Positions 6,993-9,091 of a stretch of DNA of 64,000 nucleotides are shown piece after piece. The stretch is from Mobula hypostoma (lineage: Eukaryota): positions 63,800,001 to 63,864,000 of the forward strand of contig NC_086108.1 of NCBI RefSeq assembly GCF_963921235.1, given 5' to 3'. The notes under the pieces are model-generated. The model worked only from the letters and a program-made list of their open reading frames with translations. It was not told the DNA's origin and made no database searches. A program made the position numbers and the translations under genes. Position 1 is the first letter of the stretch. Every line of letters begins with the position of its first letter.

Positions 6993-7407
6993 CTGTATAT
7001 TGAATACAACAGGCTCCTCTCTCATCTGGCCATTGACTAAAAACCCGTGATTGGTTCCATCAGACGCCATGAATGTAAAGTGATCTAGCTCAGAGGGCCC
7101 AGTTTTGTGCTTGTATGAAATGTCCAAATTATTCACATCCAGCTGTGTGAAGTGACCCTGGGAAAGAATATTCCTCCTCAAGTATAGATTGCCATACTGA
7201 GGAGGTTGTATAACAATGTAAGTTAAATTTATCAAGGGTGTGTCGGGATCTGAAAGTTGAAGGCTATCAGGAGGGATGACCATCATGGCTCCATCTTGTA
7301 AATGGAGTCCTTTGTTAATAACCAGAGTAGGCAGGACACGGTCAGTGCGTTCAATGTTAAACTTCATGGAGCTGTTTTTAACAGTCATTCCATTGCTGAC
7401 AAAAAAT
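6993..7407 (-). CDS. FREM1: FREM1-type exon (415 nt, phase 2 to 0): (R)FFVSNG…LQLSDPDTP…EEPVVFNIQ
   Basis: cacag| acceptor and |gtatgt donor. CSPG-repeat peptide recognisably homologous to FREM1; in phase with the preceding exon. Confidence 0.93.
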
Positions 7408-8826
7408 CTGTGGAAAAGAAGAGTTTGAATGAGAGAAGCTTTTAACTCTACCATAAGATAACAACATCTGTTAGGAGTTCTCATTTTTTAGTATAATTAT
7501 CCCAATCAATCGTGATGAAAAGGTTTTCACTTTAAATTCAAATGTCTGTGCCAAGGATAGTCATTTTGTTAATCATCTGCATCCATCATCTGTGGATGTT
7601 CTTTAGACATTGTTCCCCTTGCTCACAAATAGAAGTACACATCTTTCTTTACGACCAAGGCGTAACACAGTCTCATTGTTGATAACAGGATTATTCCGTA
7701 ATCTTTTAGACATTTTGATGCAGGTCGCTTTGAAATTTAAAATAAAAAGCATATTCTGTGTACTCGTTGTATCAATGTGTTTTTATATAAAAATGAATTA
7801 TTCTCTATCTCTTGCACCCAGCCTGTGTCTGTCAGAATTGATCAGTGCTCCAACAAGCCCTAATAAGATTTTTTTTTTGCATCTCTTTTCAAGCTTTAGA
7901 ATCTGTCACAATTGGTATTAATCTAATCTGAAAGAGAATTGTCAAGTGTTGGTGCATGAACAGGCCTTGACAGTTTGTCTTTCTGCAAAGTACAGACAGA
8001 TTGCGAGTTAGGAGCTGCCGAACAGATGGACAAGTTAGGAGTCGCACAATAAAAAGTAATTTAATAAATCACCTGGAGCCAGATCACTTCCAAATGCTGA
8101 GGATGAATTATAGCAAAGCTGATAGGGAGCTGGGCTTTGGCACCAGATTATGCCAGAAGGTACCAGCTATAAAAAGTGATAAACATTCATGAAAAACATC
8201 TATTCCATCATAGTCAAAGACTGGGGGCCCGCACAGGCCACTATAGTCTAAAAAAACAACTTACTTTTTATGATAAAATAGATATTATATTGTAATATTT
8301 GTATATATTGAATTATTATCCACAAATTAGATTTCCATAATTACAGTTAATGAACTAGGCATAATTAACACAATTGTTCCCCTATAGAAAGCAATTAAAT
8401 ACTACCATAGTATTACACATAGATACAAGTTCATACCCTGTATGCCCTATGAACTCTCAGTGGTTAGTCATCCCTGACAAACATATTCTGTTTGACTAAC
8501 TTTATAGCATTGCAAATTACATTTGTGTTATTTCAAAAGACAATTTGAGAAGCTTTTGGAAGGGCAATTGTAATTTACTGTAGGACTGAAAAATGACAAC
8601 AAAATTTAAAAAAAGTAATTGTCTTAAGCATTGTTCTTATGCACATTTTCATTTTATGACACTCATTGCATTTAGCTAAGGATATGAATTTTTGAAATCT
8701 ATTCTTGTTATTAAACATCACTGACTCAAAAGAATCATAAATCTTCAGTTATGATCAGCATTTTCTGCTTTAAATTATACTGTTCTTGTTAGGAGAGCCA
8801 GATTATAACAGAATAGGCCTCCTCAC

Positions 8827-9091
8827 CTGAATTCGTCCGTGTTGGCATCACGACTGTTGTCATGGTTGTAGCAGACCTTCTGGGCTGCTACCTCCAACTG
8901 GCTAAAACTGGAAATGGCCAATCCTGGATAATTGATGTACTCGATCTGACCATGTGCAGGTGGCACAGAGATGGCATACAACAGCTCTTTGGGTTTGCCA
9001 GTGCCATCTGTTGCCATGAGAACATCTGTCGTCAAGGTGACCCTGTCACCCTCTGTTAAAGTTACAGGTTTGGTGAGTACAACAATATCAC
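8827..9091 (-). CDS. FREM1: FREM1-type exon (265 nt, phase 1 to 2): GDIVVLTKP…GQIEYINYPG…DEF(R)
   Basis: ctatag| acceptor with a pyrimidine tract and |gtgagg donor; CSPG-repeat peptide. Confidence 0.93.

Follow-up and report, generated by a model that had tools for sequence, protein, structure and literature searches.

TILRR (FREM1 isoform 2, NP_001171175) is a co-receptor of IL-1R1 in tetrapods. In human, its lead, MVTQESMLKAALPLFT, precedes R17 and is encoded in the intron before exon 25 of FREM1 (PMC4009816). In the accessible part of that study, the 16-aa lead was found in 37 tetrapods and in none of five teleosts, with cartilaginous fish not sampled; an origin from non-coding DNA in the tetrapod lineage was favoured, and the alternative of an ancestral lead that was later lost was named and set aside (PMC4009816). 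The tetrapod origin is repeated in the accessible sections of a 2021 review (PMC8346017). Furthermore, a second start at Met7 has been described as the more potent, and a signal peptide has been predicted in the lead, according to the portion available of PMC2844171. Among teleosts, the available text on zebrafish describes frem1b as partly redundant with frem1a in the fin's basement membrane (PMC2855323). A literature search on TILRR and FREM1 in sharks and other cartilaginous fish, with most subscription journals outside its scope, returned no report of such a lead.

Results

The window (the whole stretch of 64,000 nucleotides that was analysed, positions 63,800,001 to 63,864,000 of NC_086108.1 from Mobula hypostoma) carries a gene of this family on its minus strand, with the following features around the intron of interest:

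6993..7407, minus strand: frem1b exon homologous to human FREM1 exon 25, the first exon shared with TILRR, with a phase-2 acceptor (homology and spliced contigs)
7408..7454, minus strand: shorter in-frame lead MVELKASLIQTLLFH from the ATG at 7454, 47 nt to the AG, with weak peptide likeness and no DNA likeness to TILRR leads
7408..7484, minus strand: open in-frame intronic lead from the ATG at 7484, spanning 25 codons and the AG that belongs to the junction Arg codon (sequence and translation)
7465..7467, minus strand: ATG out of frame with the lead, whose own frame runs for 29 codons and terminates in the exon (frame scan)
7488..7490, minus strand: in-frame TAA bounding the lead frame upstream (translation)
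8827..9091, minus strand: preceding frem1b exon, joined to 7407 in RNA contigs (homology and spliced contigs)

The last 77 nt of the intron, 5' of the acceptor at 7407, are open and in frame with the exon, and the minus-strand frame across the intron end and the exon start reads stop-K-MRTPNRCCYL-MVELKASLIQTLLFH-R-FFVSNG. The TAA at 7490-7488 is followed by a single Lys codon and then by the ATG at 7484, which has A at -3; the ATG at 7454 has G at +4 and C at -3, and between these two in-frame ATGs lies the out-of-frame one at 7467. The intron immediately preceding the exon-25 homologue thus carries an in-frame ATG lead, and the exon itself shares both intron position and phase with the TILRR exon. 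The original prediction, of a possible TILRR-like start in the FREM1 gene of a cartilaginous fish, had described the 25-codon open lead, its two ATGs and the upstream TAA exactly; it was also right about the kind of animal and the homology of the exon, and its background on TILRR (an intronic lead of about 16 aa, absent in teleosts) agrees with the accessible part of PMC4009816. Its naming of the gene did not hold, as set out below.

Four sequencing runs were aligned to the window: X1 and X4 show no differences from it, X3 corresponds to organism C, a related species whose exon differs by about 5%, and X2 gave no contig that could be placed. None of the runs listed as carrying this sequence is registered as RNA; the spliced contigs show that X1, X3 and X4 contain RNA, and in these three of the four runs they support the acceptor at 7407 and the donor at 8827; since they join 8827 to 7407, the acceptor is real and frem1b is transcribed. 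Downstream frem1b exons match residues 154-389 and 589-715 of TILRR P0019, and an RGD is present in the exon that matches residues 374-465 of P0131. Judged by these exon matches, frem1b retains the C-terminal CSPG, Calx-beta, RGD and C-type lectin parts (domain names after the accessible sections of PMC8346017). Within the exon stretch 7021-7377, 11 non-synonymous and 4 synonymous differences from organism C were listed (pN 0.039, pS 0.052, contig-based and small numbers), and these sequences suggest weak constraint on the window exon in rays.

Regarding the identity of the gene, a genome search with the window exon located a second locus (L002) in the same genome at 53% identity. The L002 exon matches P0002, which carries the name frem1a of Mobula hypostoma, at 100% identity, and the window exon matches P0002 at about 50%. 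Over the whole loci, turtle FREM1 matched the frem1a locus at 62% and the window locus at 54%, whereas catfish frem1b (P0001) matched the window locus at 56% and the frem1a locus at 50%. Moreover, a quick tree of 34 rows placed the window gene with frem1b-type proteins of frog, sturgeon and teleosts (SH-aLRT 100), and ray frem1a and whale shark with tetrapod FREM1 (SH-aLRT 99). In an 11-row tree with bootstrap, the AU test rejected all three alternatives to the frem1b placement; among these were a ray-specific duplication and a sister relationship between the window gene and tetrapod FREM1. The window gene thus clusters with the named frem1b of teleosts and separately from frem1a and tetrapod FREM1, and on this phylogenetic evidence it is frem1b, an ancient paralogue (sister) of FREM1 and not the orthologue of tetrapod FREM1 that had been predicted. 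The frog (Eleutherodactylus coqui) and sturgeon proteins P0090 and P0131 sit in the frem1b clade with the ray gene; consequently, the frem1a/frem1b duplication is not confined to teleosts, and frem1b persists in some tetrapods. The duplication would date to the early vertebrate genome duplications.

By the tree and the AU test, the window lead is not encoded in an orthologue of tetrapod FREM1, and because this orthology was tested and not found, the lead is not classed as TILRR. The implicit assumption at the outset was that it is the orthologue of the tetrapod TILRR lead, in line with the same exon, the same phase and the MV...LF ends. Nevertheless, the gene is frem1b, and a closer match exists at frem1a, both in peptide (31 vs 11) and in DNA (112 vs 34), so that this orthology, refuted by the AU test and the frem1a DNA match, retains next to no probability.

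The closer match was found at the intron end of ray frem1a (L002), which reads a stop followed by NQENLLKALTLFA-RFIVSNG. Against eight reference leads, this ray lead reached a peptide score of 31.1, above all 4233 null frames (maximum 19). At the DNA level, it shares 77% identity over 88 nt (E 3e-13) with the FREM1 intron end of a bird (L048, a metagenome contig called bird from its match to P0032 and bird clusters), in an aligned stretch that includes about 35 nt upstream of the start codon and scores 112, against a null maximum of 63 among 1409 sites. In the assembly sequence, on which this reading is based, the ray frem1a lead is broken and lacks an intact ATG and frame: it has ACG for ATG, an extra base that leaves 48 nt to the AG and so takes the lead out of frame, and an in-frame TGA. 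The same intron end (L002:1410-1500, G000:C12) also carries a deletion. In both ray frem1a and bird FREM1, a pyrimidine run with YAG lies 0-3 nt before the start codon. The conserved upstream block of about 35 nt could accordingly be a promoter or 5' UTR, or else supply an alternative acceptor to a first exon that is non-coding; a TATA-plus-initiator reading of it was dropped, there being no TATAWAWR near the lead in ray or bird.

An intact lead was identified in the frem1a protein of the whale shark (P0023, EukProt Rhincodon typus), a FREM1 orthologue with a homologous Met-initiated lead, MVNQKNLLKVALPLPLFV-R, identical at 11 of 16 residues to the amniote row P0025; it is a single gene prediction from one genome, at the protein level. 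Furthermore, P0015/P0042, a pair that the tree places as sister of ray frem1a, reads xNQEHLLKAALPLTLFA-R, in which a GTG called as Met may underlie the first residue. In some bird-like ORFs (P0027, P0044, P0048 and P0045) the first TILRR-lead ATG is out of frame or replaced by Leu and the second Met (Met7) is kept in frame, in line with Met7 as a working start. From the intact whale shark lead, the conserved bird-ray intron end and P0015/P0042, we conclude that the TILRR lead proper is very probably present at frem1a of cartilaginous fishes, that it would predate the split between cartilaginous and bony vertebrates, and that teleosts would have lost it. The original prediction that TILRR is ancestral to jawed vertebrates is therefore upheld in its conclusion, although the evidence comes from frem1a (whale shark and ray L002) and not from the window lead on which it had been built.

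As for frem1b, its intron end may be a usual pyrimidine tract with branch region in which the open frame and the ATGs are fortuitous, with TILRR having arisen only at frem1a, after the duplication; we consider this a serious possibility, if somewhat less than an even one. Indeed, an open in-frame ATG within 25 codons occurs at about a fifth of acceptors, namely in 911 of 4233 acceptor-like frames and at 11 of 54 other real acceptors of the two genes (31 of frem1a, mapped exactly, and 23 of frem1b, placed by homology; eight frem1a exons gave no frem1b acceptor and lie outside this set). Hence, open frame and ATG alone are not beyond chance; the peptide score beats all 54 other acceptors. The window lead scored a mean of 11.1 against the eight TILRR leads; the others reached 4.1 at most (mean -5.2, sd 4.8; z 3.4), and the two top-scoring of the 56 real acceptors both belong to this homologous exon, that of frem1a ranking first and the window lead second, which argues against chance. 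Among the null frames, 37, 96 or 190 of 4233 attained the window score across three scorings, and 13 of the 37 were also open with an ATG. The resemblance to TILRR leads is thus modestly above chance, with p no better than about 0.01-0.045 against acceptor-like sites.

Also in favour of chance, the window intron end has neither DNA homology nor the conserved upstream block: compared with the ray frem1a element, an alignment score as high was reached by 923 of 2000 shuffles and by 289 of 1409 sites, and compared with the bird intron end its score was 34 for a null mean of 39. Likewise, no lead was seen by eye in the bony-vertebrate frem1b-like ORFs with a visible N-terminal extension (P0061, P0062, P0063, P0193, P0131 and P0166). 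Searches for relatives of the window lead gave weak blanks: with lead and exon, 4 of 108 candidates (proteins of 269-2000 aa) and 4 of 10 proteins of near length matched, none of them a shark or ray frem1b, and the best 150 of 1737 clusters at 50% were mostly multi-repeat proteins and included no frem1b with a lead. In metagenomes, a scan with P0023 found none among 519 stretches, and one with alignment A1 found nine loci out of 297, one of which is the bird FREM1 intron end; neither scan gave a further elasmobranch frem1b intron.

Regarding RNA from the intron, two further features were placed:

7456..7725, minus strand: purely intronic X3 contig stretch, candidate 5' UTR or pre-mRNA, single copy, with nine upstream ATGs above 7484 (contig alignment)
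7780..7789, minus strand: sole sense-strand TATAWAWR cluster of the 1419-nt intron, candidate core promoter (post hoc)

The sole intronic cover was one 270-nt contig of X3 (7725-7456, 7 differences), with a depth of 5.7 vs 4.3-4.6 for exon contigs. It stops 2 nt short of the ATG at 7454, and no contig spans 7407/7408; X1 and X4 gave exonic or spliced contigs and none intronic, which does not count as absence, since contigs drop minor forms. A repeat origin of the contig was not supported, with one match in the genome by a search that skips common words. Compared with synonymous sites it was not significantly more conserved (7/270 vs 4/78, p 0.27), and its proximal 148 nt contain only one listed difference (post hoc). 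The nine upstream ATGs of the presumed 5' UTR open frames that all terminate before 7484. The TATA cluster lies 62-64 nt above the contig start, for which chance is 2-3.5% in a span of 60-100 nt (post hoc). A T-rich run ending in AAG at 7728-7749, just above the contig start, is a possible cryptic acceptor, one not used by any spliced contig.

Taken together, contig and TATA cluster hint at a transcript start inside the frem1b intron. For a transcript begun there and unspliced into the exon, the evidence is one intronic contig in one of four runs, unjoined to the exon, and contigs cannot show starts; against it, this is one contig from one study, which pre-mRNA or DNA could give. Under a chance origin of the lead, the contig would be pre-mRNA, retained intron or DNA, although sole intronic contig and sole TATA cluster both adjoin the lead.

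Discussion

Our tentative preference, held at slightly below an even chance, is that the frem1b lead is a diverged sister of the TILRR start, used as an internal start for a short FREM1b protein. This reading builds on what was observed at the locus: the paralogy, the open frame, the splice sites and the retained TILRR-matching downstream exons with RGD. Transcription would begin near 7758, driven by a TATA box at 7789-7780, and, by analogy with TILRR, the RNA would run unspliced through 7407, so that the 3' end of the intron becomes a first exon. Ribosomes would then reach the ATG at 7484 or 7454 past several short upstream frames, and the moderately hydrophobic lead could replace the signal peptide of the full-length protein and direct secretion. 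As in TILRR, the resulting short protein would begin with the lead and comprise the last repeats together with the Calx-beta, RGD and lectin parts. Against a used start, the nine upstream ATGs and the overlapping out-of-frame ATG would hinder translation, and against homology there is no DNA likeness to the frem1a element, although bird and ray keep 77% identity there.

Alternatively, the frem1b lead could be homologous to the TILRR lead and have been in use until recently, being now untranslated. Peptide likeness without DNA likeness would agree with such a relic, the ray frem1a lead seems to have met the same fate, having already lost ATG and frame, and the pN of 0.039 vs pS of 0.052 to organism C (15 listed differences) hints at relaxed constraint on the exon. 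However, the frame and both ATGs are intact, and peptide likeness would not be expected to survive in a relic dating back to the duplication; we regard this alternative as quite improbable.

Extending the preferred reading of a used frem1b start, the intronic TILRR-type start might predate the frem1a/frem1b duplication, so that early vertebrates would have had two short FREM1 isoforms. In the ray lineage, the frem1a start would have decayed while frem1b still makes a short isoform from an intronic TATA promoter, a reciprocal retention that would yield a second, undescribed TILRR-like protein. This scenario is, on the whole, unlikely.

The whale shark lead and the bird-ray intron end contradict the published tetrapod origin of TILRR. 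The TILRR start would be an element of the jawed-vertebrate ancestor lost by teleosts, which changes the reading of differences in IL-1 between teleosts and mammals. It also becomes testable, in catshark or skate, which role the short isoform had first, that of an IL-1 co-receptor or that of a matrix protein. Should the frem1b lead be in use as well, the short isoform would be older still, and with a sister. The finding is a correction within one gene family and not a new mechanism.

Comparison with known systems

Zebrafish frem1b belongs to the same paralogue as the window gene by the tree, through catfish frem1b P0001; the accessible portion of its published account describes no short isoform (PMC2855323), and teleost frem1 genes are reported to be without the TILRR lead in the available text of PMC4009816. 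The frem1a leads of cartilaginous fishes (whale shark P0023, P0015/P0042 and L002) share with the window lead the intron position, the phase, L-K-A and the terminal L-F; they are clear peptide and DNA homologues of the tetrapod lead, whereas the window lead is not clearly so.

In relation to TILRR itself, the window lead lies on a different paralogue, frem1b, and is weakly alike; its best 11-residue Kyte-Doolittle mean is 1.4, compared with 1.9-2.05 for TILRR-type leads. The window gene is without the conserved upstream DNA block of frem1a and without the Ser-Gly at the mammalian GAG attachment site, which is also missing in several tetrapod and shark rows. TILRR is an IL-1R1 co-receptor, whereas the short form of window frem1b is a predicted product. 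In brief, both leads are Met-initiated, encoded in the intron before the exon-25 homologue and in frame with the junction Arg; they are similar in length (15 codons in the window, 16 in TILRR), and both are followed by the same downstream exon series, with RGD, to the C-type lectin end.
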